DNA of 64,000 nt from Candidatus Dojkabacteria bacterium (lineage in GTDB: Bacteria; Patescibacteriota; Dojkabacteria; JAOAGR01), in contig AP026679.1 of NCBI GenBank assembly GCA_025999155.1, positions 291,996 through 355,995 of the forward strand, in the 5' to 3' direction. Under the pieces are notes generated by a model, which did no database searches, was not told the origin of the DNA, and was given only the letters and a program-made list of their open reading frames with translations. Of this stretch, positions 2,783 through 45,913 are shown one piece after another (the stretch's first letter is position 1; every line of letters starts with the position of its first letter). The translations under genes were made by a program, and so were the position numbers.

Positions 2783-3682
2783 TTACCCCACTATCTTTTT
2801 GGCCTGCTCGCGAGATACACGAACAACTCTTGGTTGCCCTTTTCCTTGATCGGTACCAGCCGCAAGGTTTCTTAATTTCTTCTGCTCAAGCATCTTAGCC
2901 ATGTTTTGAATAGCTGCCTCTAATTCTGCCTGATCAATCTCCACATATTCTACACCTTTACCACCATTTCCAAGAAGTACTGTATCCCCCAACCTATTTA
3001 AAATCAAATCGATAGAACTAATAGAATCATCATTAGCAGGAATCACATGTGTGATCATATCTGTAGATGAATTCGTATCCACCACAGCAATAACAGGAAT
3101 ATTCATTTTATAAGCTTCACGAATAGCTATCCTAGATTTTTTAGCATCAACTACAATAAGACAGGCAGGCCTTTTATTGAAACTTTTTAACCCTCCATAT
3201 AAACTATCCAAACGTTTAAGCTCGGCAAACATTTTCAATAATTCTTTTTTCGTTCTATTTTCTATGCCCTCTTTAAATGCTCTAATATAATCATTGAGTT
3301 TCTTGATAGATTTTCTTGTCACCATGTAATTTGTGAGTAGTCCTCCAGGCCATCTGTTGATAACAAAGTGCGATTTGGTTCTAATAGCAACATTTTTCAC
3401 AATATCTTGTGCTTGAGGTTTCGTACCTACAAAAATAATTTCGCCTTTGGACGCATAATGATATGCCGCCTCAATAGCCTCATTGAGCTTTCGAATAGTT
3501 TTCACCAGATCTATGATATGGATCCCGTCCCGATGGGCATATATATATTCGCGCATGGAAGGGTGCCATCTTTGAGTTTTATGCCCAAAATGCACGCCAG
3601 CCTTTAACAATAATTCAATAGACTCATCACTCTCTTCGAGTAACGGTAATACCACTTTTTGTTTATTGTTTTCCTCGTTCAT
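2783..3682 (-). CDS. rpsB: 30S ribosomal protein S2
   Basis: GVHFGHKTQRWHP..IHIIDLVKT S2 signature; rpsB-tsf operon. Confidence 0.9.
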   Translation of the reverse strand: MNEENNKQKVVLPLLEESDESIELLLKAGVHFGHKTQRWHPSMREYIYAHRDGIHIIDLVKTIRKLNEAIEAAYHYASKGEIIFVGTKPQAQDIVKNVAIRTKSHFVINRWPGGLLTNYMVTRKSIKKLNDYIRAFKEGIENRTKKELLKMFAELKRLDSLYGGLKSFNKRPACLIVVDAKKSRIAIREAYKMNIPVIAVVDTNSSTDMITHVIPANDDSISSIDLILNRLGDTVLLGNGGKGVEYVEIDQAELEAAIQNMAKMLEQKKLRNLAAGTDQGKGQPRVVRVSREQAKKIVG

Positions 3683-3828
3683 AAGTCCTAATTTACAGAC
3701 CTCCCCGGTAAACGCCGCAAAGCAACGCTTAGGACAAAACCGGGTGCTAGGTTAGTATATATGCAAACTACATTTGCCTCCGCAATTTTATCACGAGTCT
3801 TATATTTCGCAAACGTTTTTAAAACACT

Positions 3829-4269
3829 CTACTTTTTTTCCCACCAGAAAATGGACAAAGTTGTATGAATCAAAGCTCCTACGGAAGACTGAATCAAAAT
3901 ACTACTCTCAATGTTAAAACCATTAAACGTTATTATAACGATAAAATTAAAAATGTAATTCACCAAATATAACACAAACTTATTGCCACGAAACCTTACA
4001 TACAACAAATAAAAAAAATACAATGAAATAACCAATACAAGGGACGATAATCCGAGTAAACCCTTATTATACCAATCATAGCAAAGACCTGCTAAAACAA
4101 AAATAACTAAAAAACTACTCTCCGATCTAATACTTAGTATGTAGTTCAGCAATAAAGCAGATAAAATTAATAAATTCTTCCAGAATGCCAATTCTCCCAG
4201 ACCCAAATCCAACAAAAATAATCCTATAAATAACGAAAAAATACCAACATGTATATATATTTTACTCAT
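3829..4269 (-). CDS. mreD: rod shape-determining protein MreD-like polytopic membrane protein
   Basis: 146 aa with about 5 TM helices; overlaps the mreC stop by 8 nt in the mreB-mreC-mreD order. Confidence 0.5.
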   Translation of the reverse strand: MSKIYIHVGIFSLFIGLFLLDLGLGELAFWKNLLILSALLLNYILSIRSESSFLVIFVLAGLCYDWYNKGLLGLSSLVLVISLYFFYLLYVRFRGNKFVLYLVNYIFNFIVIITFNGFNIESSILIQSSVGALIHTTLSIFWWEKK

Positions 4270-5086
4270 ATCTTAAATAAACCATAGTTATAGATGTTAA
4301 ATCTAATGTTGGTACAATAACGAGCTCTTTAAACCCTGACTCTACATCATCCCGTACAGCCTTTACTTTACCTATTATGAGCCCTGGAGGCACCTCAACC
4401 ACATCATTTGTTGTTACCCAAATATCACCTTTTGGGATATCAACATCCTTTGGGACATTACGAATAAGAATATCACTTGTGTCTCTTTTACTGACAAATC
4501 CCTTGATGGAAGGATTTGAAATACTTTGCACAGGTATACTAAAAGGAATAGCTTTCGAATATAAAGGAGAAACCACAGCAGTGCTGCTTTCCACATCTGT
4601 GATAAAACCGAAAAGTGTCACCCTATCAAGATAAACAGGATCCCACTTCTCCACTATGAAATCGTGTGGTATCAGAATTTTTACCTTTGGGCTTAAGGAA
4701 TATAAATCTTGTATTCCAAAAACATCAACAGCCACCAATTTAGGAGCCGTTGGACTAATAATATTATATTTCTGTGAAATATGTTCGATTTGTTTTTTCA
4801 GTTTTTCGTTCTCAACAAGAATTTGTTCATACTCGGAGATCTGTCTTTTTAATTCTAAATTCTCCCTTGCTAGAAAAGGACGATTCATCAACTCATCCCA
4901 TACTAACTGCACATATATACCATTATTTCTAATCAGAATTACAAAAGGTATCAGGATCTGATCTAATTTAGAGTACAATACGCTATGTAAACCTAAAATA
5001 TCAATCCCAAAAATCATACCTATAACAACAAAAGCAGCTAAATATTTCCTAAAATCCGTTTTTGATTGTATAATTTCCGGATTCAT
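4262..5086 (-). CDS. mreC: rod shape-determining protein MreC
   Basis: N-terminal TM, coiled-coil (LELKRQISEYEQIL..), C-terminal beta domain with GDIWVTT..GLIIGKV; immediately downstream of mreB. Confidence 0.7.
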   Translation of the reverse strand: MNPEIIQSKTDFRKYLAAFVVIGMIFGIDILGLHSVLYSKLDQILIPFVILIRNNGIYVQLVWDELMNRPFLARENLELKRQISEYEQILVENEKLKKQIEHISQKYNIISPTAPKLVAVDVFGIQDLYSLSPKVKILIPHDFIVEKWDPVYLDRVTLFGFITDVESSTAVVSPLYSKAIPFSIPVQSISNPSIKGFVSKRDTSDILIRNVPKDVDIPKGDIWVTTNDVVEVPPGLIIGKVKAVRDDVESGFKELVIVPTLDLTSITMVYLRYE

Positions 5087-6617: not shown

Positions 6618-7850
6618 ATGAAGATATATTTAGACACCGTAAATGAATTTAAATCTCTGCATATACAAAAAGATACTCCACTTGCATTGGTTTTGTTTCT
6701 TGTGAAAGTTGGTACTCGTTACGAAACTTCTGATGTATCTGGGATTGCACATTTTATAGAGCACATGATGTTTAAACAAACTCAGAAACGTTCTACATCC
6801 GATATAGCAATTGAAATTGAATCTTTAGGCAGCCAAACAAACGCATTTACATCCCATCAATATACCGGTTTTTTTATAAAAATGCTTGGTACAAAATTTG
6901 ACGAATCTTTTGAGATTCTAGCGGATATCTTTCAAAACGGTAAGTTCGATAAGAATGATTTAGATATAGAACGTGGTAATATAATCGAAGAAATCAAACT
7001 CACACAAGATACCCCATCAGATCTAGTATGGGATTATGCGCAATCTAATATTTTCCCTAATAATACATTAGGGTGGCCTATTTTAGGTACTGAAGACTCT
7101 GTAAACAAGATTAATCAAGGTGATATTTTAAAATTTTTAGAACAGAAATATCTACAAGATGATATTCTGATAGTGTCTGTTGGTGATTTTGATCATGATA
7201 GAGTAAAAGACAACATCACAAAACACCTACGTCCTCGTAAACCAGGCCGATTAGAATTTGAGCCAGCCGAATTCAAACCAAAATCTAAGATTAATTTTCA
7301 TCACAAAGAATCATGTAATCAGGCGCATGTAGTGATTTCTTTTCCAGGAGTGAAAGATACCGATGAGGATTTTTTTAAATATGAAATTTTAGCCGAAATT
7401 CTTGGTGGTGGTATGGGATCGATTTTATTTTTATTGCTAAGAGAACAACTAGGAGTAGCTTATTATGTAGGTGCATTGCATCCAAGTTATCAAGATGTTG
7501 GAACTTTGCAAATTTATTTCGGAACAAATACAGATAAAACCTCCATGGTAATACAGGAAGTCTTCAAAACTTTAGAAGATATTAAAACCAAAGGAGTATC
7601 TAAACGAGATTTAGAACGCGCCCAAAATTATTATTTCTCGCAAATTACCATGGCCCAAGAGAACATTTTATTCTTAGGACGCCACTACGGTCTAGATTAT
7701 CTACTACATGGCAAAATAGATACTATCGAAGACATAAAGCGGAAAATTTATTCAATTACCGAAGACGATATCAAAAATTTAGCTAAAAAGGTGTTTAGTG
7801 ATCATTTCAACATCACATATATTGCGAATTCAGATTTAATCAAGATTTAA
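6618..7850 (+). CDS. M16 family zinc peptidase (pitrilysin/insulinase-like)
   Basis: HFIEH inverted zinc motif (HxxEH) plus downstream conserved Glu region; 410 aa. Confidence 0.75.
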   Translation: MKIYLDTVNEFKSLHIQKDTPLALVLFLVKVGTRYETSDVSGIAHFIEHMMFKQTQKRSTSDIAIEIESLGSQTNAFTSHQYTGFFIKMLGTKFDESFEILADIFQNGKFDKNDLDIERGNIIEEIKLTQDTPSDLVWDYAQSNIFPNNTLGWPILGTEDSVNKINQGDILKFLEQKYLQDDILIVSVGDFDHDRVKDNITKHLRPRKPGRLEFEPAEFKPKSKINFHHKESCNQAHVVISFPGVKDTDEDFFKYEILAEILGGGMGSILFLLLREQLGVAYYVGALHPSYQDVGTLQIYFGTNTDKTSMVIQEVFKTLEDIKTKGVSKRDLERAQNYYFSQITMAQENILFLGRHYGLDYLLHGKIDTIEDIKRKIYSITEDDIKNLAKKVFSDHFNITYIANSDLIKI

Positions 7851-13378: not shown

Positions 13379-13812
13379 TGGTGGAGATGGCGGGAATCGA
13401 ACCCGCGTCCGAAAAGTTCTTAAACAAACATCTACAAGCTTAGTAGGTTTCATATGTAGCTTTTGTCTTTAAAACCTACAAAATGACAAAGGCTTTTGGC
13501 CTTTAACTTGATCAAGACTGCCGGCCCGCAACCTTGACGGTCAACTTAGAAGTAAAGATCAATAGTAAGCTACGTTGACCTGCTCACTTACTACTCTACC
13601 CGAACAACTACTCTTCGTAGTGTCCGGAAGTTAGGCAGCTAATTGCACAACTTGTTGTGGGGTAATTGCACTAATTATAGATCTACCTAACTCGCTTAAT
13701 TTATTTTCTGCACTTTTTGATGAGCGATATTCTAGTACGTGTCATCGCCAAACACGACTTGCAGTTTGTTCAAGAACATCCCGTCAAGTCCAATACATCC
13801 CCATATAACGTC
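13379..13812 (-). ncRNA. ssrA: tmRNA (ssrA)
   Basis: 5' end GGGGAUGUAUUGGACUUGACGGGAU matches the tmRNA 5' consensus; 3' end UUUCGGACGCGGGUUCGAUUCCCGCCAUCUCCACCA is near-identical to the E. coli tmRNA 3' end; internal tag reading frame ends ...VVQLAA-UAA. Confidence 0.8.
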
Positions 13813-16575: not shown

Positions 16576-16651
16576 GCCAGAGTAGCTCAGTCGGTAGAGC
16601 AGCGGTTTTGTAAACCGCGGGTCGTGGGTTCAAGTCCCACCTTTGGCTCCA
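16576..16651 (+). tRNA. tRNA-Thr (TGT)
   Basis: acceptor GCCAGAG/CTTTGGC, D-arm TAGCTCAGTCGGTAGAGC, anticodon loop TT-TGT-AA, T-loop GGTTCAAGTCC, CCA encoded. Confidence 0.85.
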
Positions 16652-17694
16652 CTACAAAAATTTTTATGTTTTTCACTATTTATTTCTTTTGTGTATTAGA
16701 TTTAAGACACAATATATCACGAATATCAGACTAATCTGTAGTTTTTGAAATTTTGATGACATCCGTACAAAAATTTTATATCAATACTGCTCGCTGATAA
16801 ATCCAATTGAACAAGGGTATTTTCGGAAACATAGAATAATCACAGCTAAGGATAGAAAATGTTATATTAATAATCTTTATCCAGATACTGTACATTGAAT
16901 TTAAACATATCTCTTGATTCTGAGTAAATACGGAGGCTTACTTATTCTCTAATACATGAATAATATTGACGAATCAAAAATAAGGTATAGCCAATTGATG
17001 ATACTAGTAAAATTTTTATTCGGATACATAATTCCGATCGTTTTGATTAGCTGAATTCTCATAAGTGACCAATATTCTGTCGAATAGCCGGACATAAGTT
17101 TATTATTGATCCCTTAACAGGAGGATCATTTATGTTAAAAAAAAATTATTAGAAAAATTAAAAGTATGAATATGTTTATTTAAGCAAAATACTTACATTA
17201 TAGAAAATACCAACAAACATATGAATTTAAAGTACAAATAATAAAGCTTATATTCTTTAGTTTTGCCAGTCTTCCGGAAAAATGAGTATTAAAATGTAGA
17301 ATTTTATTCAGTTTATAACATAGATCAATGCTTAAAACATGTGACCACAGATCCCAAAATAAACAACGAAAAATCAGGACTTTAAAACATCAACACCAAA
17401 AACAGGCACAAGATATTTCTTACATTTTATAAAATACTATTAATAGGCTGCAGTTTATATTCTGCTTACATCTCTATATTTAATTTTTAGGAGAAAACTC
17501 GCTAATCGACTTACAGCCCTAAAAATTCTATATTAGAAATGTCCTAGTTCAGATAGACTTAAGCCATCCAAACGCTCCTAGATAATATTCAATGATACAA
17601 GATTATTATTATTTATATAATTATATCAACCCTAAACGTAACTAGGACGACCTTCTACAGACAAATAACCTAATTATAAGGATAAGCGGACTAC

Positions 17695-18912
17695 CTAATC
17701 AGCTTTATACACGAAAGTCAATGCCCTATTTAGAACCTCTTCACGTTTCGAGGGGTCACCGTACTCGTCTAGATCAGAAGGTTTATCAGTATATTTAAAC
17801 TCAATACGACCATCAGGGTAAACAACAGTATCACCTTCGAATATAAATATTTCCCTTCCGACCATGTCTTGACTTAATATGGTCTCTATACTTCCGTCAT
17901 CTAGATTAACTCTCAGAACCGATTGTGAATATGCTGGAGGTTCAAACGACTCACCATGAAGAATAACATAATTTTCCCCTCTATAAACGGCAGAACCAAA
18001 AGTCCTGACGAGTTCGACATTACTACCGTTAATCCTGTACAGACTAGGACCAATGAAACCTCTACCTAGGCCATTAGCATCTGAAGCTGTGATAAAATAA
18101 TTATCACCAAACTCAATAATACCCTCGAAGGAAGTAAGTTTACGGCCATCATATATTTTGTACGTTTTGCCATTGATCAAATGATAGCCGGTCACCTCAG
18201 CCCATGGATCATTCTCTTGACGCTGACAATCTATAGGATTCTTATCTAGTATTGTATAAGCTAAATCATTTTTCTTATTCACGGCAATATAAGCTATAAA
18301 ATTCTCGCGTTGTGGAGCAGTATATACAACACTAACATTCTTATTTGTGTCCATCATTTTTACTTTATTAGGTTCATCTGTATCAACAAAGTATAATCGC
18401 ATACCATCCATACTAACCACAGGATGTGCAGGCAACCTACGTGGACAGGTATCGGAATTATTTCCCCAATCAAGAAAATTGTACAAAGGATCCATGACTA
18501 ACTCACTACCTAACCTATACTCTAACTTAGAGGACTCTTTATTAAAACGAATATTAAATTTACCCGAAACTGGACTCACATCCTTAGACACAAGGTCTGA
18601 CATATATAAAAGGTAATATGGTGGCAGTACAGAATAATCCATACCTGCTGATAAACTAGAATTATTTGTATCGACGGTATTTTGATTAATACTGTTTGAA
18701 GGTACATCTGAAAGGTTTTTACCAGAACCAGAATATGCTAAATATACTAGTACAATAGCTACAACAAACAATACTCCTAATGTAATAGCTAGAAATTTCT
18801 TATTCTGAAGTATACTCGAGTAATCTGAATCAACAGTATTTAGATTAGTAGCTTCGCTATTACTGGATTGATTTAATTTACTGGATTGATTTAATTCTTT
18901 TTCATTTGACAT
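17695..18912 (-). CDS. membrane-anchored surface protein, beta-propeller-like ectodomain (DUF5050/TolB-like blades), paralog A
   Basis: S/N-rich N-terminus, one TM helix, then repeated ..LYRINGSN.E.. / RLYFVDTDEPNKVKMMDTNKNVSVVY blade-like motifs; two paralogs in the window. Confidence 0.6.
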   Translation of the reverse strand: MSNEKELNQSSKLNQSSNSEATNLNTVDSDYSSILQNKKFLAITLGVLFVVAIVLVYLAYSGSGKNLSDVPSNSINQNTVDTNNSSLSAGMDYSVLPPYYLLYMSDLVSKDVSPVSGKFNIRFNKESSKLEYRLGSELVMDPLYNFLDWGNNSDTCPRRLPAHPVVSMDGMRLYFVDTDEPNKVKMMDTNKNVSVVYTAPQRENFIAYIAVNKKNDLAYTILDKNPIDCQRQENDPWAEVTGYHLINGKTYKIYDGRKLTSFEGIIEFGDNYFITASDANGLGRGFIGPSLYRINGSNVELVRTFGSAVYRGENYVILHGESFEPPAYSQSVLRVNLDDGSIETILSQDMVGREIFIFEGDTVVYPDGRIEFKYTDKPSDLDEYGDPSKREEVLNRALTFVYKAD

Positions 18913-19287
18913 GTTTTATTGTATATTAATTGTAGGCATGCTGTAAACTGCTGTCAATGTAAAGACAGAAAACATCAAAAAATATAAGATTTCCATTTTT
19001 TGTTAACTATTGATTAGAAGTACTGCAATTTTTTATTTTATATGTAGTAAAATAAAATTTTTTATCTCACCCACCAGGACAACTGTGATAAGACTTATAC
19101 TCTAAATAGTTTAATCATCCACTAGGAAGATAAAATTGATATATCGATATATGTAATAACAGGTCATCGTGCTAGTAAGTTCAAAAGTGATGGATTAATC
19201 TAAATGCTTAGATGCAGAAATTTTTATATAAAGACATTATCTAATATAGTGTACTAGAAAATTACTCACAATAATCTACATCAAATA

Positions 19288-19992
19288 TTATTTTTGTTTT
19301 TGTAAGACAAACAAAATGTCCTCAAAGTTTCTTTCTCGGATTAGTCTTCGATGTAAATTAACTACAAAATCAAGTAGCTTTAGACTAAAAACATAATATG
19401 AAGGATCTGATAAAAATTTTAGATCAACAATATCAAAACCGTACTTGCTTGAATAGTTTCTGATTGATACACCATCATTTAATTTATAGTAGACAGGATA
19501 AGTATCTTGTTCATCTCTTCCCCATACCAGCTTTACTATTTTTTTATGAAATATATTTGGGATCAATCTGCTAATTGTTGTGACAATTGAATATTTATTT
19601 GGAGTAATAGAAATGAAATAACCTCCTTTTTTCAAAACCCTTACCAGGTGTCTAAACATAAAATCGGGATCATTGATGTGTTCCATCACCCAACTACTGA
19701 CTACTATGTCAACACTTTCTTCTTCTAACAACTCTAATTTATCAAAAGTCCCGATGATTTTTGTATTTACAACTTTATTTGCTTCTATTGCGGCAGCATC
19801 AGGATCAAGCCCAATGACTTCTCCAGCCTGAGTATAGGCATCTATCATAAACTCCGACCTACCACATCCGATTTCTAGGACACGCTCTCCACCCTTTATA
19901 TAGTTTATTACTGTAAATTTATATACATCGGCAGGAATAGAAAAGTCAGTATATCGACTTTTGATAATATGCTGAATATCGTGAATATACAT
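19288..19992 (-). CDS. class I SAM-dependent methyltransferase
   Basis: motif I VLEIGCG, post-I acidic GLD, motif II/III region (VDIVVSS...LKKGGYF). Confidence 0.7.
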   Translation of the reverse strand: MYIHDIQHIIKSRYTDFSIPADVYKFTVINYIKGGERVLEIGCGRSEFMIDAYTQAGEVIGLDPDAAAIEANKVVNTKIIGTFDKLELLEEESVDIVVSSWVMEHINDPDFMFRHLVRVLKKGGYFISITPNKYSIVTTISRLIPNIFHKKIVKLVWGRDEQDTYPVYYKLNDGVSIRNYSSKYGFDIVDLKFLSDPSYYVFSLKLLDFVVNLHRRLIRERNFEDILFVLQKQK

Positions 19993-20061
19993 CTACTAGT
20001 CCTTATTAAAGAAACAAAGAAAAACTCAATTATGACAAAAACCACAAGAGAAATCGCACAA

Positions 20062-20229
20062 CTACTTCTTTTCAACAAACTCTACATGCTGTCGCACATT
20101 GGGATCATATTTTTTCAAAGTCAACTTACCCTCAGCTTTACGGCTCTTATAGGTATAATACACATAACCCGAAGCAGATACTAATTTAACTAAGTTTTTC
20201 TTCTTTTTTTTGCCTTTTTTACCAGCCAT
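20062..20229 (-). CDS. rpmG: 50S ribosomal protein L33 (Cys-less form), 55 aa; absent from the supplied ORF track (below size cut-off)
   Basis: hand translation MAGKKGKKKKKNLVKLVSASGYVYYTYKSRKAEGKLTLKKYDPNVRQHVEFVEKK; C-terminal LTLKKYDP..R.HV.F.E.K matches the L33 family. Confidence 0.75.
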   Translation of the reverse strand: MAGKKGKKKKKNLVKLVSASGYVYYTYKSRKAEGKLTLKKYDPNVRQHVEFVEKK

Positions 20230-20500
20230 CTGTGTAAACGATACAATTAGTATTATACATGAAAATAAAAGAATAACAAAACACGCTAATTACAACCGAA
20301 ATATATAACCAAAATTACCGCGAATATTCCGTATAAAGTCAATTTTTCAAATCAAGATCTTTTATTAGGTATACTATTATAAAAATATAAAAAAAAACAG
20401 ATTAAACAGATCCACCAAACCTGTGCTGCAAATCTTTTTACACTGACATAGTCAAAAGAACAAATATGTGAATTAGAATAGATTATAAATTACTCCAAAA

Positions 20501-20576
20501 TGGAGCTAGAAGCGGGACTTGAACCCGCGACCCCTTCCTTACCATGGAAGCGCTCTACCAACTGAGCTATTCCAGC
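20501..20576 (-). tRNA. tRNA-Thr (GGT), copy 1
   Basis: acceptor GCTGGAA/TTCTAGC, anticodon loop AT-GGT-AA, T-loop GGTTCAAGTCC, CCA encoded. Confidence 0.85.
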
Positions 20577-20699
20577 ACCACACTGCGCATAAGCTACACC
20601 ACAAACTTCGCATAGACTATCCTCAACAAAACGAAGGAATACAAGACACGTACACCATCTAAAACCCTCACAATGGAATCACCTACCACTAAAAAACCT

Positions 20700-21343
20700 T
20701 TACTCGACACTAAACTCCTCTATCGTAAAGCCCTCTTCTGTATTACCAACCATTGTAATAACCACTACATTATTACGATAATTGAACGCTATTAATTTCA
20801 TCGTGTTAACGCCAGTATTGTAAGGAGATTCCCCATCAATCTTAAATAACACAAACTGCAATAACAAATCAGCTGAAGACTTACTTTCTAAATAATCACA
20901 AAAATCACTTATCTTTTTTGCCTGTTCTATAAACTCTGCTTCTGTAGTATCCTGCCTAAACTTTTCAAGAGTCCTAGTTCGATAAGTATTCGATAATTCA
21001 GAATCAGATTTTTCGCAGACTGTCTTATCCAACTGCGATACAAAAACTTTTTTTGTTCATCCGCAAAGGCTAACTCATTAGCAACTAGCAAAAACGAACA
21101 AACAGTACATACACAACAAACTATGACCAAAACAATACAAGATATTAAAACAAAAGACTTCATCTTACTTCCAGATTTACTCTGAGGTACACCATACACA
21201 GCCTGGGGTGCCGAACCTGACACCGAGCCCACAGCAGGTGGTGCATTAACACGCATAGCCGGAGGATTGGTGGGAGAATATTGCGGTAGATTATGATTAA
21301 CAGAGACTACGTTTTGCGGATTTACTTGAGTGTTCATAAACAA
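20700..21343 (-). pseudogene. small membrane-anchored protein, paralog B, disrupted by a 1-nt frameshift (two overlapping ORFs 20927-21343 and 20700-21032)
   Basis: N-part and C-part align with the N- and C-halves of the intact 219-aa paralog at 23322-23981; B is 1 nt shorter within an A7GT5 homopolymer (forward A5CT7 at about 21043-21054). Confidence 0.55.
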
Positions 21344-21475
21344 CTATTCTTAAAAATTAAAAGACCCAAGCCATTCTAAAACTACATACCACATTCGTCA
21401 ACGTCTACAAGAAAAACCAAACACAACCCTCCCTTAATTTGAACTAACTATTTATTGCTAAGTTACAAATTTAAT

Positions 21476-22768
21476 TTATCTATTCACATAATACACAAAA
21501 GTAGAAGCCCTATTCATAACATCATTCTGTTTAGAAGAATCCTCAAAATCGTCTACATCAGAAAGTTTATCAATATACCTAAACTCAATACGACCATCAG
21601 GGTAAGCAACAGGACTAAAATCTCCAAAATTGAATATAAAAATTTCCTTTCCAACAGTGTCCTTGCCAAGTACGGTCTCTACACTGCCATCATCAAGATT
21701 AATCTTTAGAACCGACTTAAAAAAACCCAGTCGTACGAGAGATTCTCCATAAAGAATAACATAATTCCTCCCTCTATAAACAACCGAACCAAAGGTCATA
21801 ACAAGATTGGTATCATCGCCGTTAATCCGGTACAGACTAGGACCTACAGGACCAACACCCAAGCCGTTGAAATCTGGTGCAGCAATAAAATAATTATCAC
21901 CAAACTCAATAATACGCTGGAAAGATAAAGATCTCTGACCATCATTTATTTTATAAGTTTTTCCGTTTATCAAATGATAGCCGGCTACACTAACCCATGG
22001 ACCTTGATCCCCAAGTTGACAATCTAAAGGATTTTTCTCCAATATCGTATAAGCTAGGTCATTATTCTTATTGAGAGCGATGGAAGCTACAAAGTTCTCA
22101 GGTTCCGGAGCTGTATATATAACACTTACGTTCTTATTTGTATCCATCATCTTCACTTTATTTGGCTCATTAGTATCAACATAGTACAATCGCGTACCAT
22201 CCATACTGACCACAGGATGAGCAGGCAATCTACGCAGACAAGTATCATAATCGGAATAGTCCACAAAACCGTAAGGACGATCCATGACTAGTTCATTACC
22301 CAATCTGTACTCCAACTTAGAAGACTCACTATCGTAATGAACATTAAATTTATCCGAAGCAATAGGTACATTGGAATACAAAACTTTTGATACGTAATAA
22401 AAATAATATGAAGACATTACGAAATAATCCTTGCTTTCAGATGAATCAGATTTACTCGTACCAGACGAATCAGATGGACTTGTATTAGGCATACTTTGAC
22501 TAGAATTATTTGAAGAAAGCCCGAACGGAATCTTACTAGAATAAACCAAAGATACTAAAACAACAGAAACACACAGAACTCCCAGAGCAATTACTAAAAT
22601 ACTAATAACTAAAAATTGCTTGTTTTGAAGCATACCAGAGTCATTACTCACATTTAAGTGTGAAGTACTTGTACCTCTATCTGCTTGATTTTCCTCAGAG
22701 GTATTTAGTCCGCTTGAATTTAACATGATTGATTCTATCAAATTACATGACTCTAATCTAGACATCAA
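21476..22768 (-). CDS. membrane-anchored beta-propeller-like surface protein, paralog B
   Basis: collinear with 17695-18912 and 24122-25384 (SKLEYRLG.ELVMD, CLRRLPAHPVVSMDGTRLYYVDTNEPNKVKMMDTNKNVSVIYTAP, GYHLINGKTYKI, LYRING..). Confidence 0.6.
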   Translation of the reverse strand: MMSRLESCNLIESIMLNSSGLNTSEENQADRGTSTSHLNVSNDSGMLQNKQFLVISILVIALGVLCVSVVLVSLVYSSKIPFGLSSNNSSQSMPNTSPSDSSGTSKSDSSESKDYFVMSSYYFYYVSKVLYSNVPIASDKFNVHYDSESSKLEYRLGNELVMDRPYGFVDYSDYDTCLRRLPAHPVVSMDGTRLYYVDTNEPNKVKMMDTNKNVSVIYTAPEPENFVASIALNKNNDLAYTILEKNPLDCQLGDQGPWVSVAGYHLINGKTYKINDGQRSLSFQRIIEFGDNYFIAAPDFNGLGVGPVGPSLYRINGDDTNLVMTFGSVVYRGRNYVILYGESLVRLGFFKSVLKINLDDGSVETVLGKDTVGKEIFIFNFGDFSPVAYPDGRIEFRYIDKLSDVDDFEDSSKQNDVMNRASTFVYYVNR

Positions 22769-22861
22769 TTACATCAACAATAAAGAAAACACAAGATCTA
22801 CAGGCCCTATTATCGATACAGGATAATTATAAACCGACATCAAAAAACCAATATAATTATT

Positions 22862-23016
22862 TCTTTTCAACAAAATCTACATGCTTACATACATTAGGGT
22901 CACATTTTCTTTCTCAGAGCTAACTTACATCGGCTTTAGGGCTTTTATAAGTATAATATACGTAACCAAAAGCAGATACTAACCTGATTAAGTTTTTTTA
23001 CCTTTATTACAAGACA
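22862..23016 (-). pseudogene. rpmG (L33) pseudogene, copy B
   Basis: nucleotide homology to the rpmG gene at 20062-20229 but with in-frame stops after codon 9 and altered frame. Confidence 0.55.
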
Positions 23017-23149
23017 TCTGTCGAAAGTAGGTATGACCTAAGCACGAAACATGAAAATAAAAGAATAAAAAACACAGATAACGCAATAAAAACAAACAAA
23101 CCTAGCGATCGAAAGAAAAATATGAAAAAGGATCATGCACTACCTAAAA

Positions 23150-23225
<76 letters not shown>

Positions 23226-23321
23226 ACCGTATTGCGCACAAATAACGTCACATAAACTATCCCCGACAAAACAACAAAATATAAACATAAGGACCTGTCC
23301 ACCATCCAAAACTCTTACAAC

Positions 23322-23981
23322 CTATTTTGATGCAACTTCTGCTATAACAAAATTCTTTATTTTAAAACCTTCTTGTGTATTACCAACCATTACAATACTC
23401 ACTCCATCACCATTGTAATTAGATACCACTAATGCCATTTTGTTCACACCAGTGTCATACGGACTCACCCCCTCAATTCCCAAAATTATACCTTGAGAAT
23501 ATAAATCAATCGCCGATTTACCTTCTAAATGATTACAAATACCACTGATCTTTTTAGCTTGTTTTACAAAATCTGCTTCTGTAGTACTTTGCCTAAACTC
23601 TTCCAGAGTCTTAGTTCTATAAACCCTCGATAGATCAGAGTCAGATTTTTCGCAGACTGTCTTATCCAACTCCGACACTATAATCTTTTTATGTTGTTCT
23701 ACAGCCGTAACATTACCATTAACCAGAACAGATAGAAAAACAGTACACACACAACAAACTACAAACAAAACAATACCAGATATTAAAAAACAGGACTTGT
23801 TTTTACTTCCAGCTTTATTCTGAGGTACACCATACACAGCCTGGGGTGCCGAACCTGACACCGACCCCACAGTAGGCTGTACATTGACACCCATAGCCGA
23901 AGGACCGGCGGGATAATGCTGTGGCAGATTATGATTAACAGAGACTACGTTTTGCGGATTTACTTGAGTGTTCATAAACAA
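23322..23981 (-). CDS. small membrane-anchored protein, paralog C (intact, 219 aa)
   Basis: Pro/Gln-rich N-terminus, Cys-rich TM helix (CFLISGIVLFVVCCVCTVFL), conserved C-domain VCEKSDSDLS..YRTKTLEEFRQ..TEA.F..QAKKI...GNTEEGFKIK. Confidence 0.6.
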   Translation of the reverse strand: MFMNTQVNPQNVVSVNHNLPQHYPAGPSAMGVNVQPTVGSVSGSAPQAVYGVPQNKAGSKNKSCFLISGIVLFVVCCVCTVFLSVLVNGNVTAVEQHKKIIVSELDKTVCEKSDSDLSRVYRTKTLEEFRQSTTEADFVKQAKKISGICNHLEGKSAIDLYSQGIILGIEGVSPYDTGVNKMALVVSNYNGDGVSIVMVGNTQEGFKIKNFVIAEVASK

Positions 23982-24121
23982 CTATTCTTAAAAATTAAAA
24001 GACCCAAGCCATTCTAAAACTACATTCAATACTCGTCAATATGCATAAGAAAAATTACAAACAACGCGATCTCCATATAATTTTAACTAACTTATTGCAA
24101 AGTTAACAATTAAATAAACAT

Positions 24122-25384
24122 TTATCTATCAATATCATACACAAAAGTAGAAGCTGTATTCCGAGCCTCATCCAGTCTAGAAGGATCTTCAGAATCCTCA
24201 ACATCATCTATAGAAATTTTATCAGTATACTTAAACTCGATACGACCATCAGAGTAAACAACGGGACCAAAATCAATAAAATCAAATATGAGAATCTCCT
24301 TTCCAACAGTATCTGGACCTAGTAAGGTCTCTATACTACCGTCATCAAGATTCACCTTTAAAACAGACTTAGCAACACCCGAAAGAAAATATTGTCCGTA
24401 AAGAATAATATAATTACTTCCCCTATAAACCACTGGACCAAAAGTCATGACATGTTCGACATTAGCTTCGTTAATCCGGTATAAAATAGGGCCTACAGGA
24501 CTAAACTCTGCAGCAGCGATAAAGTAATTATCTCCGAAATCAATAATAACCTCATCAGACGCAGCAACAAACCTCTCACCATTATTTATTTTATACATGT
24601 TTCCATTTATTAAATGATAGCCAGTTACACCACCATCCGATTGACAAAATAATACAGGTCTTTTTTCAAATATTGTATAAGCTAAATCGTTATTCTTGTT
24701 GATAGCAATAGAAGCTATAAAATTCTCAGGTTCAGGGGTAGTATATATAACACTTACGTTCTTATTTGTATCCATCATTTTTACTTTATTAGGATCCTCA
24801 ATATCAACAAAGTATAACCGTGTACCATCCGTACTAGTCACAGGATAGGCAGGCAACCTCGGTCGACAACTATCATTTCCATTAAGTGTTAAATCATAAA
24901 AGCCGTAAGAACGATCCATGACTAGCTCACTACCCAACCTATATTCAAACTTAGAGGACCCACTATCATAATAAACATTAAACCTATCGGAATCTGGAAC
25001 ACCTCGAAGATAAAATAAAGAATTCGCATAATAAAAAGAATATGAAGGAGATAGGAAATAACCCCCACCTCCAGGTGAATCAGATGTACCATTACTAGAC
25101 ATCTCGTGATCATAATTGTTTGAAAAAACTCCTGGATGAATCTCACTAAAATAAGAATCGAAAACCCTCATAATAATATCTAAAGATACCAGAGTAATAT
25201 CACGACCATACATAAGTCCGACGGGACATAATACACTTAATAGAAAAACAACAGTTAAACAGTTACCTAAAAATTGCATCTTTTGAGGCAGACCATAGTC
25301 ACCATTCACATTTAAATGTGAAGTATTTGTACTTTTATCCTCTTGATTTTCCTTAGAAGTATTTTGATCCTCTGCAGTCAACAT
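24122..25384 (-). CDS. membrane-anchored beta-propeller-like surface protein, paralog C
   Basis: same motif series as paralogs A and B. Confidence 0.6.
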   Translation of the reverse strand: MLTAEDQNTSKENQEDKSTNTSHLNVNGDYGLPQKMQFLGNCLTVVFLLSVLCPVGLMYGRDITLVSLDIIMRVFDSYFSEIHPGVFSNNYDHEMSSNGTSDSPGGGGYFLSPSYSFYYANSLFYLRGVPDSDRFNVYYDSGSSKFEYRLGSELVMDRSYGFYDLTLNGNDSCRPRLPAYPVTSTDGTRLYFVDIEDPNKVKMMDTNKNVSVIYTTPEPENFIASIAINKNNDLAYTIFEKRPVLFCQSDGGVTGYHLINGNMYKINNGERFVAASDEVIIDFGDNYFIAAAEFSPVGPILYRINEANVEHVMTFGPVVYRGSNYIILYGQYFLSGVAKSVLKVNLDDGSIETLLGPDTVGKEILIFDFIDFGPVVYSDGRIEFKYTDKISIDDVEDSEDPSRLDEARNTASTFVYDIDR

Positions 25385-25550
25385 AATTAATTTTATTCAA
25401 TTACGTAACTTTAATCCATAAATCAACTTACATAAAAATAAAGAAAACATTAGATCTACAACGTACTGTTATCGATGCAAGGTAGGAGAAAAAACTAATT
25501 TAATTAGAAACCTACATCAAAAAGCAAAAAGCTAATATAAACTATTTCGT

Positions 25551-25690
25551 TACAACAAAATCCATATACTTACATACATTAGAGCCGTATTTTCTCAGAG
25601 AGAACGTACCATCAGCTTTACGGCTTTTATAAGTATAAACATACATAGCTAGAAGCAGATACCAATTTGATTAATTTTTATATCTTTTTA
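25551..25690 (-). pseudogene. rpmG (L33) pseudogene, copy C (more degraded)
   Basis: recognisable nucleotide similarity to rpmG (..ttacatacattag.gc..tattttct....ga..tacc.tcagctttacggcttttataagtata..) without an ORF. Confidence 0.45.
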
Positions 25691-25819
25691 ATCTTATCAC
25701 GTTTAATTTATCGAAAAGTAGTATGATCTAGTATTGTCATCAAAAATAAAGATCTTGTACCATCTAAATACGTCTATCATCCAAGATCGTTACAACCAAA
25801 GGATTTATTGTGTAAAAAT

Positions 25820-26380
25820 TTAATCACGACTTAATGCTTCTTCAACAACGCTATGTTCCGCTGCAAGAAACCTCTTTATTTTAAAACCTTCTTCTGTATT
25901 ACCATAGAATCGAATAAATACTAAATGACCATCATAATCAAATGACACTAATATCCTAGAGTGATTAGTACCTCTACTACTAACTGTACAAACAGATCCA
26001 ACGAATGTAAATTGCGAGTACAAAGTCAACGCCGAGTTATTTTCCAAATAATCACAAATCTTACGGACTTTTCTTGCCTGTTCTATAAACTCTGCTTCTG
26101 TCATATTTTGTCTAAGCTCTTCGAAAGTCCTAGTTCGATAAGTCTTAGATAGATCAGAATCTGATTTGTCACAGACTGTATCATATAACTCTGATACCAA
26201 ACTTCTTTTCTCTAATTCCGAACATCGAACAAACATGCCGCCAAAACATCCACCAAAAAGTAAAGCCAAGGTAAAAACTTTGGTAATCGCAAAAAAAGAC
26301 TGTAAAAAAAGATGGATTTTATCTCTAGATTTCTTCTTGGACATACCACACACGGCCTGCTGGAGTGATGGATCCGACAC
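25820..26380 (-). CDS. small membrane-anchored protein, divergent paralog D
   Basis: shares the C-domain (VCDKSDSDLSKTYRTRTFEELRQNMTEAEFIEQARK...YGNTEEGFKIKRF) and a TM helix; different N-terminus; no adjacent large partner. Confidence 0.5.
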   Translation of the reverse strand: MSDPSLQQAVCGMSKKKSRDKIHLFLQSFFAITKVFTLALLFGGCFGGMFVRCSELEKRSLVSELYDTVCDKSDSDLSKTYRTRTFEELRQNMTEAEFIEQARKVRKICDYLENNSALTLYSQFTFVGSVCTVSSRGTNHSRILVSFDYDGHLVFIRFYGNTEEGFKIKRFLAAEHSVVEEALSRD

Positions 26381-26718
26381 CTGACCAGTAACAGACCGCT
26401 CATTAATTATAGCAGAAGCATAGGGAGAGAGTGATTATATCCCATATTCGTCAATGTGCATCAGAAAATTTATACAGGATCAACTTTATGGCTGATTTAC
26501 ACTAAATTATTGGAAAATCAATAGTCGGGAATTTATATACGTAATCTGAAAAATAACCTTTACATCAAAATAAAAAACGATTGACACACGAAATTCTAAA
26601 ACGTGTATTAATTCTCAATTTTAACCCGAGTTCACATCAGAAACCTTAAAACTCATTTAGCTGGGTAAACTATGAACAAAGAGATAGAAAAAGTAAGAAA
26701 AAAGAAAAACGTACGGCA

Positions 26719-26805
26719 GTGGTGCAAGCGGGTGGATTTGAACCACCGTAGACACAAGGTCGCCAGATTTACAGTCTGGTGCGTTTGACCACTCCGCCAC
26801 ACTTG
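26719..26805 (-). tRNA. tRNA-Tyr (GTA), type II with long variable arm
   Basis: acceptor GCAAGTG/CGCTTGC, anticodon stem-loop CCAGA-CTGTAAA-TCTGG, 15-nt variable arm, T-loop GGTGGTTCAAATCCACC, CCA encoded. Confidence 0.8.
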
Positions 26806-26944
26806 CACGACACATCATTTTACATCGATAAAGTCAATTGTTCAATACAAAGGATTATCAAGCAATATAAATATAACCACGTATAGAACAAAACTAATGC
26901 TAAAAAGGTTTTTAATTAGCCGACTAAAATTAATAAGAAAAACT

Positions 26945-27328
26945 TCATTCTATAGATGTACTAGAATTATTGATACATTGTGTAAGTTCTTCATTTGGAG
27001 TCCACCCACATTTGCCATCACTTTGTAATTCACACTTAGCAAAAGGCTGTTTATAACAAGCAAATTCTTCTTTCCAAATGCACATTGAAGAGACATCCTC
27101 ACCAGCTTTCACACATAATTCACCACTACATCCAGCAACGACACATGCACTACTACCATCACTAGGTTGATTTAATTGATCTGGTTCTTCGATCTTAGAA
27201 ACATCCGACTTCATATCGTCATTCATCACATTATAGAAAATCACTCCCGCAAGCAAAGATACAGATAAAAATAGGACAACAATAGTGATTAATTTTTTTT
27301 GAGATATGTTATTTACAATATTTGACAT
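26945..27328 (-). CDS. small secreted/anchored cysteine-rich protein (8 Cys in about 60 aa)
   Basis: N-terminal hydrophobic signal/anchor, then CVVAGCSGELC...CIWKEEFAC...C...GKCGW...QC. Confidence 0.5.
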   Translation of the reverse strand: MSNIVNNISQKKLITIVVLFLSVSLLAGVIFYNVMNDDMKSDVSKIEEPDQLNQPSDGSSACVVAGCSGELCVKAGEDVSSMCIWKEEFACYKQPFAKCELQSDGKCGWTPNEELTQCINNSSTSIE

Positions 27329-27468: not shown

Positions 27469-27543
27469 TGGTGACTCTACGGGGAATCGAACCCCGGTTT
27501 CATGGCTGAAAACCATGCGTACTAACCGCTGTACGATAGAGTC
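27469..27543 (-). tRNA. tRNA-Glu (TTC)
   Basis: acceptor GACTCTA/TAGAGTC, anticodon stem-loop CATGG-TTTTCAG-CCATG, T-loop GGGGTTCGATTCCCC, CCA encoded. Confidence 0.85.
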
Positions 27544-31946: not shown

Positions 31947-32291
31947 TTGTATAATCCTACGAATTTATTTGTGTTATACTTACATTACATGAATTGGGCA
32001 ACTGAACTAGTCAAAACTATATCCGGTCTCGAACTGACACCTAACTACGCGTATCTGTATTTAGGCTTCATCGCTGTAACAATAGGATTCGTAGCTTGGA
32101 TGATATATTACGCATTATTCAAAGGAGCAGTCAAAGAACTAGATCATGTAGAATGGTTATCTTTTAAAAATACAGTAAAATATACCGTAATCACTCTGGT
32201 AGCTATAGTATTCTTTAGTTCTCTTTTATTTGGCTACGACTTTCTTTTAGATCAATTAGTTAGTACAATAATACAGTATGCAAACAAATAG
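31947..32291 (+). CDS. secE: preprotein translocase subunit SecE
   Basis: C-terminal SecE TM/amphipathic region (ELDHVEWLSFKNTVKYTVITLVAIVFFSSLLFGYDFLLD); immediately upstream of nusG. Confidence 0.65.
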   Translation: MYNPTNLFVLYLHYMNWATELVKTISGLELTPNYAYLYLGFIAVTIGFVAWMIYYALFKGAVKELDHVEWLSFKNTVKYTVITLVAIVFFSSLLFGYDFLLDQLVSTIIQYANK

Positions 32292-32820
32292 CGATAAAAA
32301 AGCGAAATGGTACGTAGTTTACTGTAATAGCGGGCAAGAAGATACGGTGTCCGGTCTTATCAAAATAAGGGCACAAAATGCCGGTTTATCAGATCAAATA
32401 CAGGATTTTCTAGTCCCTACTGTGGAAAAGATTACCATACGTAAAGGGGAGAAAAAAACAGTAAAAGAAAAAGTTTACAAAGGCTATATTTTCATAAAAA
32501 TGGTGTTGAATGATCAGACATGGCCTTTGGTTAAAGATACTCCAGGAGTCATTAGATTTGCTGGTACAGGTAAAGAACCTACCCCCATACCAGAATCAGA
32601 AATCAAGGCGATTCAAGAAATTTCGGGCCAACAAATTTCCTCTTATAAACTTAATATTTCAGAAGGAGATAAAGTCAAAATCACATCAGGAGATTTCAAA
32701 GACTTTACTGGTACAGTTACAAAAATAGATTACGAAAATGGTAAAGTTACTGTCAATGTGATATTTCTAAACCGTGAAGTTCCAGTCGAACTGGATGTCA
32801 CACACATAGTACATCAATAA
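32278..32820 (+). CDS. nusG: transcription termination/antitermination factor NusG
   Basis: NGN domain (KWYVVYCNSGQEDTV) and C-terminal KOW (GDKVKITSGDFKDFTGTVTKID). Confidence 0.85.
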   Translation: MQTNSDKKAKWYVVYCNSGQEDTVSGLIKIRAQNAGLSDQIQDFLVPTVEKITIRKGEKKTVKEKVYKGYIFIKMVLNDQTWPLVKDTPGVIRFAGTGKEPTPIPESEIKAIQEISGQQISSYKLNISEGDKVKITSGDFKDFTGTVTKIDYENGKVTVNVIFLNREVPVELDVTHIVHQ

Positions 32821-45700: not shown

Positions 45701-45913
45701 GTTGTTGGATCAGGGACAATTACTGCAGGACAGACACGTGTTGTGATAAACAATTCCAATGTACAATCAACAAGTAAAATATTCATTACTTTGACGAGTT
45801 CAAGTACGCAAGTAATTTCTGTGATCAATAAAACCCCTGGAGTAAGTTTTGAAGTATCTATTCTAACACAACAAACAGAAGATATTACTTTTGACTATTG
45901 GATAATAAATTAA
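42737..45913 (+). CDS. large N-terminally anchored surface protein with about 112-aa tandem repeats and a tail-fiber/YadA-head-like Gly/Asn repeat region
   Basis: cytoplasmic N-terminus, one TM helix, then at least 4 repeats (..NWN.AFSWGNH.TAGYL..SDP.F..S.A..IT..DI..WN..), then NTF.G..SG..N.TGG.N..IG repeats and a Thr/Ser-rich C-terminus. Confidence 0.6.
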   Translation: MPNVPYNSTQASLYNQDTYNGSNYEIPKSRYLTDEERSLKRWVLPTILVLLIVIILLLCNSSGLIAEVLPFLNRNVSNGSTSKSLTPGINSDDISNWNKAFSWGDHREAGYLTKESDPLYSSSPAAKITEDDLKKIQDAYSWGNHTTAGYLKSYNETDPKYSSSPASSITSSDIAKWNSNVLPTGNASQYLRGDKTWQTFPTCTPSQALAWNGTNLVCVNFPTYTETDPIFTASPANSITNTMISNWNTAFSWGNHTTAGYLTSESDPVFSASVAASITAADITNWNNKENAISLGTTSQFLRGDKTWQTIPTCAGNDRLIWNGTSFVCSPTGTLTTENDPIFTGSPAAAITSADITNWNTAFSWGNHATAGYLTSESDPVFAASVAAGITSANITSWNNKENAIAPGTTSQFFRGDKTWQTIPTCTGNDRLIWNGTSFVCSPTGTLTTENDPIFTGSPAAAITSADITNWNTAFSWGNHATAGYLTSESDPVFAASVAAGITSANITSWNNKENAIAPGTTSQFFRGDKTWQTIPTCPINNALLWNGSNFMCQSFVSSNSTLRLGTNAGLNLTSGVNNTFLGHWSGYSNTTAHANTFVGALSGQATTTGGWNTFIGEWSGLSNATGGANVYIGHASGYWANGSYNVFLGVSAGRHFGTGSNANTNPLNSIMIGYDTRPQANNQANQIVIGDSAIGAGSNTTTIGNTSVTATYLRGSLVASDNIANGTTRVDITGTGTGWAVCHSGSNTDTNDVFLVDCAGTPSADYMEMYPVELNAQIGDILMASNDYVMTQDNERIVRLVKSDGIHNTRVIGVMSDINKAGDFNSIGHNISASDNPQPVALSGRVYVNIDPSSPDIEPGDMITISNIPGKGKKLTGSGFVVGKALEAWTSSSGQTKVMVYIMNFYYNSLGINDYFTLSGTTLTTDYLLVVNGSITANNLAIASGKFTVATNGDTVIDAVLQANQAVIRNLTVDKLTINTTPLVGDPVVGSGTITAGQTRVVINNSNVQSTSKIFITLTSSSTQVISVINKTPGVSFEVSILTQQTEDITFDYWIIN
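43660..44345 (+). repeat. two DNA-identical 336-bp (112-codon) tandem units within the surface-protein gene, with older divergent units upstream (about 43000-43660)
   Basis: 43685-43996 is identical to 44021-44332; the period is exactly 336 nt; the minus-strand ORFs 43501-44526 are mirror artefacts of these repeats. Confidence 0.85.

Follow-up and report, generated by a model that had tools for sequence, protein, structure and literature searches.

Organisation of the locus

The window analysed here is a 64-kb stretch of contig AP026679.1 from a metagenome-assembled genome (MAG) of a Candidatus Dojkabacteria bacterium, and all coordinates are given in window numbering. On its minus strand lie three collinear copies of one gene cassette (units A, B and C), which fill a 10.8-kb island bounded exactly by genes for tRNA-Glu and tRNA-Thr(UGU). 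Reading 5′ to 3′ on the minus strand, the order within a unit is a gene for a small anchored protein (small), tRNA-Thr(GGU), rpmG and a gene for a large anchored protein (large), with a methyltransferase gene before large in unit A only. Proteins identical to the window's large and small ones are annotated as hypothetical (KatS3mg084_0281-0284) on a 738-kb contig of a Candidatus Dojkabacteria MAG.

Unit A comprises small A (20700-21343), which is split by a 1-nt deletion but otherwise intact, tRNA-Thr(GGT) copy A (20501-20576), which carries an A26G substitution, the sole intact rpmG (20062-20229; ribosomal protein L33, Pfam PF00471 Ribosomal_L33, 43 bits, E 5.6e-11), a class I S-adenosylmethionine (SAM)-dependent methyltransferase (19288-19992; Pfam Methyltransf_11/23/25/31) and large A (17695-18912). 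Unit B holds an intact small B (23322-23981; probable start ATG at 23975, 217 amino acids (aa)), tRNA-Thr(GGT) copy B (23150-23225) with the ancestral sequence, an rpmG pseudogene (about 22855-23020) and large B (21476-22768; probable true start ATG at 22726). Unit C, whose upstream neighbour is tRNA-Tyr(GTA) (26720-26806, minus strand), consists of small C (25820-26380), a second rpmG pseudogene that aligns to rpmG (about 25540-25700) and large C (24122-25384). An initial annotation made from the sequence alone had listed these elements as three collinear units, with the tRNA-Thr(GGT) copies one substitution apart, the methyltransferase confined to copy A, two decayed rpmG copies and a frameshifted small A, and all of this was borne out.

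The array is a tandem segmental duplication

Self-comparison by blastn joined 20497-23005 to 23146-25687 in a single alignment of 2618 columns at 73% identity, which runs through coding and intergenic DNA, and further collinear matches link units A and C. The collinearity therefore goes beyond coding paralogy, as first proposed. A Logan assembly made from the raw run DRR290133 matches window positions 27548-24749 (2.8 kb across unit C) at 100% identity. Moreover, the three-unit array is also present in a second, independent MAG from another project (GCA_017880035.1, the sister genome, hereafter L001), in which the units are orthologous one by one to those of the window (B-B 84%, C-C 90% aa identity). 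The triplicated cassette is a true tandem segmental duplication of a four- or five-gene module.

The synonymous divergence (dS) between paralogues in different units is 0.66-1.0, as against 0.07-0.4 between orthologous units of the window and L001. The triplication thus predates the split of these lineages, and is therefore not recent. The initial annotation had called the locus recent and expanding; the array is instead shared with L001 and the changes visible in it are those of decay.

In a tree of the large proteins rooted with distant homologues, the A genes formed a clade (88% bootstrap) with the single-copy genes of other lineages nested inside, and B and C grouped together (60%), whereas the small tree joined A with B (92%). 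These two groupings would be reconciled by a second duplication in a shifted register. The ancestral segment of about 3.8 kb would have carried small, tRNA-Thr(GGU), rpmG, the SAM-methyltransferase and large. The complete unit would first have been duplicated, with subsequent loss of the methyltransferase, and a segment running roughly from the tRNA through the rpmG relic and large to small would then have been duplicated in turn. The shifted register is that of the 2.6-kb self-alignment.

Fate of the duplicated genes

The two tRNA-Thr(GGT) copies differ at tRNA position 26, where copy B matches the copies of L001 and of JGI contig Ga0401068_000059 (JGI 3300038964, hereafter L003). No tRNA-Thr is left in the 130-nt gap of unit C, and it is likewise absent from unit C of L001. 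Both rpmG relics have stops or frameshifts in all frames: pseudogene B has suffered a 10-nt deletion and an early stop, and pseudogene C lacks a start codon and is interrupted by stops in every frame. In the sister genome the sole tRNA-Thr(GGU) lies in unit B, having been lost from units A and C, and the sole rpmG lies in unit A, which is a differential resolution of the redundancy. The methyltransferase is present both in unit A of L001 and in the single-copy locus of L003, and thus belongs to the complete unit in its ancestral form; only unit A has kept it. The tRNA and rpmG copies are hitch-hikers of the segmental duplication.

Zinc-independent rpmG paralogues under Zur control exist in Bacillus and Mycobacterium, and the present locus resembles those cases in having more than one rpmG-like sequence. 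However, the extra copies here are dead by-products of segmental duplication, and a functional (zinc-independent) alternative L33 was rejected since stops or frameshifts interrupt all three frames. The intact rpmG is also on the opposite strand from secE-nusG (31947-32820), some 11.7 kb away, an arrangement shared by L003. In most bacteria rpmG, secE and nusG are adjacent and co-directional, and therefore an old inversion has separated them.

Selection was assessed against housekeeping control genes, for which omega (dN/dS, the ratio of nonsynonymous to synonymous divergence) was 0.05-0.15. Large orthologue pairs gave values of 0.26-0.50 (P(omega=1) <0.01), the highest being that of large C against its L001 orthologue (0.50, P(omega=1)=0.006). 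Within the large protein, omega is 0.12-0.30 for the ectodomain versus 0.5-0.7 for the tail, transmembrane (TM) helix and linker, and the paralogues are 66-67% identical in aa sequence over the ectodomain versus 41-47% over the N-terminal part. The strongly diverged, fast diversifying ectodomains of the initial annotation are thus in fact the best conserved part of the protein, and it is the N-terminal part that varies.

The small genes are under looser constraint. Small B is weakly constrained (0.52), and the C-terminal part of small A has a dN/dS of 0.33 against the intact L001 orthologue. For small C against its L001 orthologue, pN/pS (proportions of nonsynonymous and synonymous differences) was 1.55, which does not depart significantly from 1 (P=0.23); both small B and large C are significantly more constrained (Fisher P 0.02-0.03). 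L001 itself has an intact small gene in each unit. After the amplification, surplus copies of rpmG, tRNA-Thr, the methyltransferase and small have been lost or are eroding, and the three large copies have been kept.

Gene conversion between copies

A perfect 100-nt repeat (21288-21387 = 23926-24025, minus strand) covers about 44 nt upstream and the first 18 or so codons of small A and small B, including a promoter-like TTGACG-17-TAGAAT site. The following 200 nt or so are 86-89% identical, versus a background of 67-75%. The identical 5′ blocks of the small genes that had been reported therefore exist, although they span about 18 codons and not about 60. This tract is a gene-conversion patch, with B as donor and A as recipient. 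The conversion is specific to the window lineage, since the N-terminus of small A in L001 is not B-like. In the sister genome, rpmG pseudogene B is 89.7% identical to rpmG A of the same genome versus 75.8% to pseudogene B of the window, which shows an exchange from rpmG A to pseudogene B; the exchanges are short, non-reciprocal patches. Gene conversion between copies, as suggested at the outset, is supported by the 100-nt tract. Besides the paralogous blocks, no exact repeat of at least 25 nt was found within 17600-26500.

The large protein family

Searches of Pfam, NCBIfam, PADLOC and PHROG returned no family for either the large or the small protein, in agreement with the initial view that neither belongs to a described family, and literature searches found no description of the locus or of the two families. 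Close homologues of both proteins occur on only a handful of related contigs. A large-family profile searched against 1.84 billion cluster representatives retrieved 18 proteins, the distant ones at 18-33% identity; among these 18 there was no Pfam or NCBIfam match except for the sigma domains of one member (P0022, below). A scan of GTDB species representatives with the large-family alignment found no relatives, and a metagenome scan found three loci only.

Members of the family have in common a short tail at the N-terminus, a single TM helix, a linker rich in Ser, Thr and Pro, and a beta-rich domain of about 270-300 aa with two near-invariant cysteines. Large A, B and C each have a single TM segment, and large C, for example, consists of an N-terminal tail, one TM helix, a linker and an all-beta ectodomain of about 300 aa. 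The tails of the window proteins are 35-45 aa long and of low complexity, with no anti-sigma domain. Because a single hydrophobic segment follows basic residues and the ectodomain cysteines are conserved, the large and small proteins are probably single-pass membrane proteins with the N-terminus inside and the C-terminus outside (N-in/C-out), which agrees with the earlier proposal of anchored proteins.

The ectodomain had also been described as beta-propeller-like. This is plausible, and we infer that a propeller-like fold is likely but unproven, because the large-family profile matches six repeated stretches of a WD40-repeat protein. A structure model of the ectodomain is all-beta but of low confidence (predicted local distance difference test, pLDDT, 53). 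The likeness to TolB/PD40/WD40 propellers (DUF5050-type) thus consists of an all-beta large ectodomain and those six matched stretches, together with the motif P-V-V-S-x-D-G-T-x-L-Y-F-V, which we take to resemble PD40. However, no propeller profile of Pfam or NCBIfam matched significantly, and neither did any sequence in the PDB, where the best propeller matches (prolyl endopeptidase, tricorn) had E values of 0.34-0.38.

Distant large genes lie between a gene for RNase H, on the opposite strand, and secA (loci L006, L007, L012, L013 and L014/L015). Three of these loci (L006, L012 and L013) carry tandem pairs of large paralogues, and therefore tandem duplication in the large family has happened repeatedly. 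No small homologue was found beside the large genes at the RNase H/secA loci. Protein P0022 (locus L011, 5603-7351) is an extracytoplasmic function (ECF) sigma factor (Sigma70_r2 and r4; TIGR02937, 76.5 bits versus a cut-off of 42.9) fused via TM helices to a large-family ectodomain, and may be a one-component transmembrane sigma factor. Its gene is flanked by sortase, C-type-lectin and LamG-domain genes, a context that points to an envelope or sensing setting and not to partnership with a small protein.

Two smaller features of the large A genes were also recorded. A perfect 18-nt tandem duplication (2.1 copies, 18860-18896; peptide LNQSSK/LNQSSN) in the cytoplasmic tail of large A is recent slippage in the least constrained part of the protein. 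Contig VSSL01000661.1 (L005, 372-1318) has the large A orthologue in two overlapping open reading frames (ORFs; 154 and 169 aa), through either a frameshift or an error in sequencing, whereas a Logan assembly (L004) has the same gene intact.

The small protein

Small B has a Pro/Gln-rich tail, a TM helix with a CCxC motif and an ectodomain with two conserved cysteines. In the structure model the C-terminal domain is an alpha+beta cone fold, with N-terminal helices on a curved antiparallel beta-sheet, and on this basis the ectodomain is confidently predicted to be NTF2-like. No profile of the NTF2 clan (SnoaL, DUF4878, VirB8 and others) in Pfam or NCBIfam matched any member of the family, and a Foldseek search of the PDB with the full-length small model returned nothing at E<=0.001. 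Small C likewise has one TM helix and an NTF2-like domain, with a divergent N-terminal part that lacks the CCxC motif. The CCxC cluster within the TM helix (23740-23790 in small B, 21100-21150 in small A) is kept in small A, small B and both single-copy orthologues despite a dS of >0.7, and is lost in small C; oligomerisation, metal binding and lipidation are candidate roles.

The frameshift in small A is a 1-nt deletion that leaves an A7 run at 21048-21054; with one base added back, the gene encodes a 212-aa protein in agreement with the intact L001 orthologue. The A7 run arose from the deletion itself, and there is no repeat-driven tract for phase variation.

Two other assignments were considered and rejected. 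Matches of small C to HigB_toxin and PD-Lambda-2_A (E 5e-3 and 1e-4 over about 40 residues) are below cut-off, absent from the paralogues and at odds with an extracytoplasmic NTF2 domain, and were put down to chance. The architecture of the small protein would suit a VirB8-like component of a type IV secretion system, but no gene of such a system lies in the island or its flanks and PF04335 was not matched. More generally, the small protein differs from known bitopic NTF2-like proteins (VirB8/TrwG, TcpC, the Tim44 C-domain and ARC6/PARC6) in having no sequence similarity to them by Pfam or NCBIfam and no secretion-system genes nearby. The small C of L001 has, within one loop of its NTF2-like domain, a 12-nt tandem repeat insertion (6704-6738; peptide GRVIGRVIGR), which is compatible with relaxed constraint on small C.

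A variable island between two tRNA genes

The left boundary of the island is tRNA-Glu(TTC) (27469-27543, minus strand; ARAGORN and Rfam) and the right boundary tRNA-Thr(TGT) (16576-16651, plus strand), beyond which lie RidA and IlvA. Identity to L003 is 97-100% over window positions 30760-27515 and 16713-12729, and 37-90% in between. The switch occurs within 40 nt of the ends of the two tRNA genes: at the 3′ end of tRNA-Glu, identity falls from 100% to 52-65%, and at tRNA-Thr(TGT) it rises from 37-67% to 100%. The corresponding interval of L003 holds a single cassette of small, tRNA-Thr, rpmG, methyltransferase and large. Near-identical flanks, a sharply divergent interior and a difference in gene content, as found here between the window and L003, are what characterise a flexible island. 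The duplication had at first been described as tRNA-flanked. However, tRNA-Thr(GGU) is cargo inside the unit, and it is the whole island that tRNA-Glu and tRNA-Thr(UGU) flank.

A fourth lineage (GCA_008362845.1 / SRR8613699), reconstructed from tiled contigs, is apparently also single-copy, and its tRNA-rpmG-methyltransferase segment is 97% identical to that of window unit A. Across lineages, the rpmG-methyltransferase-large A segment falls into two deep haplotypes, the large A proteins of the window and the fourth lineage being 93% identical in aa sequence and those of the sister genome and L003 89%, versus 56-58% between haplotypes. Each haplotype occurs with both copy-number states, a mosaic that therefore requires recombination between lineages. 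The survey of relatives that had been proposed thus shows copy number to vary (1 versus 3). The simplest mechanism would be homologous exchange of the island, with the tRNA genes on either side as anchors, which would yield the one-copy and three-copy haplotypes as well as both deep alleles.

Within the island, 26945-27328 (minus strand) encodes a small secreted or anchored eight-cysteine protein of the heavy_Cys/CGP type (NCBIfam TIGR04292, TIGR04289). Its match to TIGR04292 (E 5e-12) is below cut-off, and its orthologues carry the precomputed Pfam assignment Heavy_Cys_CGP. It shares 75.6% aa identity with the L001 orthologue (omega 0.34) and, in 40-nt windows, its DNA is 65-90% identical to L003 versus 97-100% in the outside flank; it is a second fast-evolving envelope protein of the locus. 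At the other end, a stretch of about 1 kb on the downstream side of large A (16652-17694) contains no ORF of at least 60 aa and no Rfam match, is 37-67% identical to L003, and could be either decayed cassette remains or a regulatory or non-coding RNA region. Outside the island on the left lie a hibernation-factor-like gene (27993-27688) and tRNA-Trp (28174-28101), both on the minus strand. In L001 a glmS-like gene (GATase and SIS domains, 604 aa; 2908-4722) is inserted between the hibernation factor and tRNA-Glu. It is absent from the window and from L003, and is further gene-content variation just outside the island.

An Rfam scan at permissive threshold found nothing but tRNAs. The total of promoter- and terminator-like sites was not above shuffled expectation (55 versus 53.8), and the position of the best promoter-like sites is at most suggestive: small A, small B and large A each have a promoter-like site of their own, that of large A (18957-18929) being strong.

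Other features of the window

A transfer-messenger RNA gene (13379-13802, minus strand) encodes an unusually long tag peptide of 26 residues, AENKLSELGRSIISAITPQQVVQLAA, which is kept in relatives with small changes. On the plus strand, a 1058-aa ORF (42737-45913) that matches no Pfam family contains a 336-nt (112-aa) tandem repeat of 2.6 copies at 93% identity (43470-44349) and sits in the highest-GC stretch of the window (0.38-0.39). From its sequence it is probably a large repetitive surface protein. As distant large homologues adjoin secA, this ORF was checked as a candidate SecA; it has no SecA domains and was rejected.

Discussion

We interpret the array as an old tandem triplication, in a tiny-genome member of the candidate phyla radiation (CPR), of an envelope-protein cassette that sits in a swapped, tRNA-bounded island, and put the probability of this interpretation at about 0.72. 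What selection has maintained would be the large protein, a single-pass envelope protein with its N-terminus inside, whose stalk carries a disulfide-containing, probably propeller-like ectodomain. Several diverged large paralogues would give additional or alternative surface binding specificities, through host contact or variation in a phage receptor, and the small NTF2-like protein would be at most an accessory factor.

Several observations weigh against parts of this account. Surface exposure and a binding role are deduced only from predicted topology, and the propeller assignment from a low-confidence model and sub-threshold sequence signals. The dS values are not a clock, as the lineages are mosaic: for one and the same pair of genomes, the dS of unit B and that of unit C are four-fold apart. 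The node joining large B and C has only 60% support, and the frameshift in small A could be a consensus error of the MAG. Small genes have been kept in every unit of the sister genome, and their in-register co-amplification with large is compatible with a real partnership. Lastly, copy number may have changed in either direction. The single-copy small genes are about equally similar (50-62%) to each of the three small types, as would also be expected if a single copy were ancestral; however, secondary loss or replacement of units B and C seems at least as likely, because the single-copy large genes nest in the A clade.

The strongest competing explanation is that of the initial annotation, in which the locus is recently expanding, each unit encodes a cognate large and small protein that form a two-component surface complex, and the ectodomains are diversifying under positive selection. 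Large and small have indeed been co-amplified in register, both are predicted to be N-in/C-out with cysteine-containing ectodomains, L001 has three intact small genes, the CCxC motif in the small TM helix is conserved, and copy number differs among relatives. However, the paralogue dS of 0.66-1.0 and an array common to several lineages contradict recency, and an ectodomain omega of 0.12-0.30 contradicts positive selection. Nor do the two genes share a fate, as constraint persists on every large copy whilst small A is frameshifted and small C neutral. A distance of 1.5 kb, taken up by tRNA-Thr, rpmG and the methyltransferase, separates small from large in the complete unit, and close adjacency of large to small arises only at the duplication junctions. 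Moreover, the distant large homologues, tandem pairs included, have no small partner. The explanation as a whole is therefore unlikely, and the evidence leans against an obligate large-small pair.

A somewhat poorer prospect is that the large protein acts not as an adhesin or receptor but as an extracytoplasmic sensor tethered to the membrane, anti-sigma-like or otherwise signalling, whose paralogues respond to different envelope or environmental cues. P0022, in which an ECF sigma factor is joined through TM helices to a large-family ectodomain, speaks for it, and the layout of short cytoplasmic tail, TM segment and extracytoplasmic domain resembles that of single-pass anti-sigma factors. Yet only 1 of the 18 family members is such a fusion, and P0022 itself sits among surface-protein genes (sortase, lectin, LamG). 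The low-complexity tails of 35-45 aa in the window proteins have no anti-sigma domain, and the island contains no sigma factor gene.

It is very improbable that the cassette arrived on a mobile element or prophage inserted at a tRNA gene, of which the island would be what remains. The exact bounds at two tRNA genes and the sharp contrast with near-identical flanks are what such an event would leave, but no integrase, transposase or phage-like ORF was found among the ORFs of the window, the cassette proteins have no PHROG or PADLOC match and there is no shift in GC content. Furthermore, the island holds the essential single-copy rpmG, tRNA-Tyr and tRNA-Thr(GGU), and the same locus is occupied in every relative. 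An assembly artefact would mean that variants of a single cassette from different strains had been joined end to end. The window does come from a MAG, and some short contigs from relatives break in or near the locus, but we give this almost no credence because independent assemblies agree (the DRR290133 assembly over 2.8 kb of unit C and the three units of the MAG from a separate project) and because the units differ in tRNA, methyltransferase and pseudogene lesions, which strain chaining would not produce.

The interpretation as a triplicated cassette in a swapped island places the locus beside two known kinds of system. Flexible (or metagenomic) islands carry envelope determinants that differ between near-identical strains and are swapped by recombination in the flanks, as in O-antigen and surface-protein islands and in the constant-diversity model. 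The present island resembles them in its flanks (97-100%) and interior (37-90%) with sharp break points at two tRNAs, and in its membrane-anchored or secreted cargo with varying gene content and copy number (1 versus 3 units; glmS in one haplotype). Unlike them, it has no glycosyltransferases or integrase and carries essential rpmG and two tRNAs; the comparison covers four sampled lineages. Tandem surface-protein arrays with gene conversion are known from host-associated bacteria with reduced genomes, as in the variable lipoprotein loci of Mycoplasma, babA/babB of Helicobacter and msp2 of Anaplasma. Here too there are tandem, diverged, anchored paralogues, short conversion tracts and a homopolymer frameshift in one copy. 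However, there is no expression site with silent cassettes, the full-length paralogues are under purifying selection and the ectodomain is conserved. An antigenic-variation system of the vls or msp2 type was rejected, because each copy has a full-length ORF and three of them (small A, small B and large A) a promoter-like site of their own, and because omega is below 1 for large, with the ectodomain its most conserved part.

A more far-reaching proposal can be made, although we think it rather unlikely. The large family could be a Dojkabacteria-specific module for cell contact or reception, assisted in this clade by the small protein. For an episymbiotic CPR bacterium the island would then be the locus that determines specificity, towards host or phage, through the set of paralogues and the haplotype carried. 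The ECF-sigma fusion in one relative gives a hint that this ectodomain is capable of transmembrane signalling as well.

The array of envelope proteins is real, strain-variable and lineage-restricted, and as a gene-family expansion it is fairly ordinary. Tandem duplication, decay of passengers, patchy conversion and a swapped envelope island are textbook genome evolution, and no new class of system is involved. What is new are two un-annotated, CPR-restricted families of envelope proteins. The array is also an unusually clean natural example of which genes survive a segmental duplication and which do not, when essential ones (rpmG and tRNA-Thr) happen to be included. The island offers a concrete candidate locus for strain-level surface variation in Dojkabacteria.

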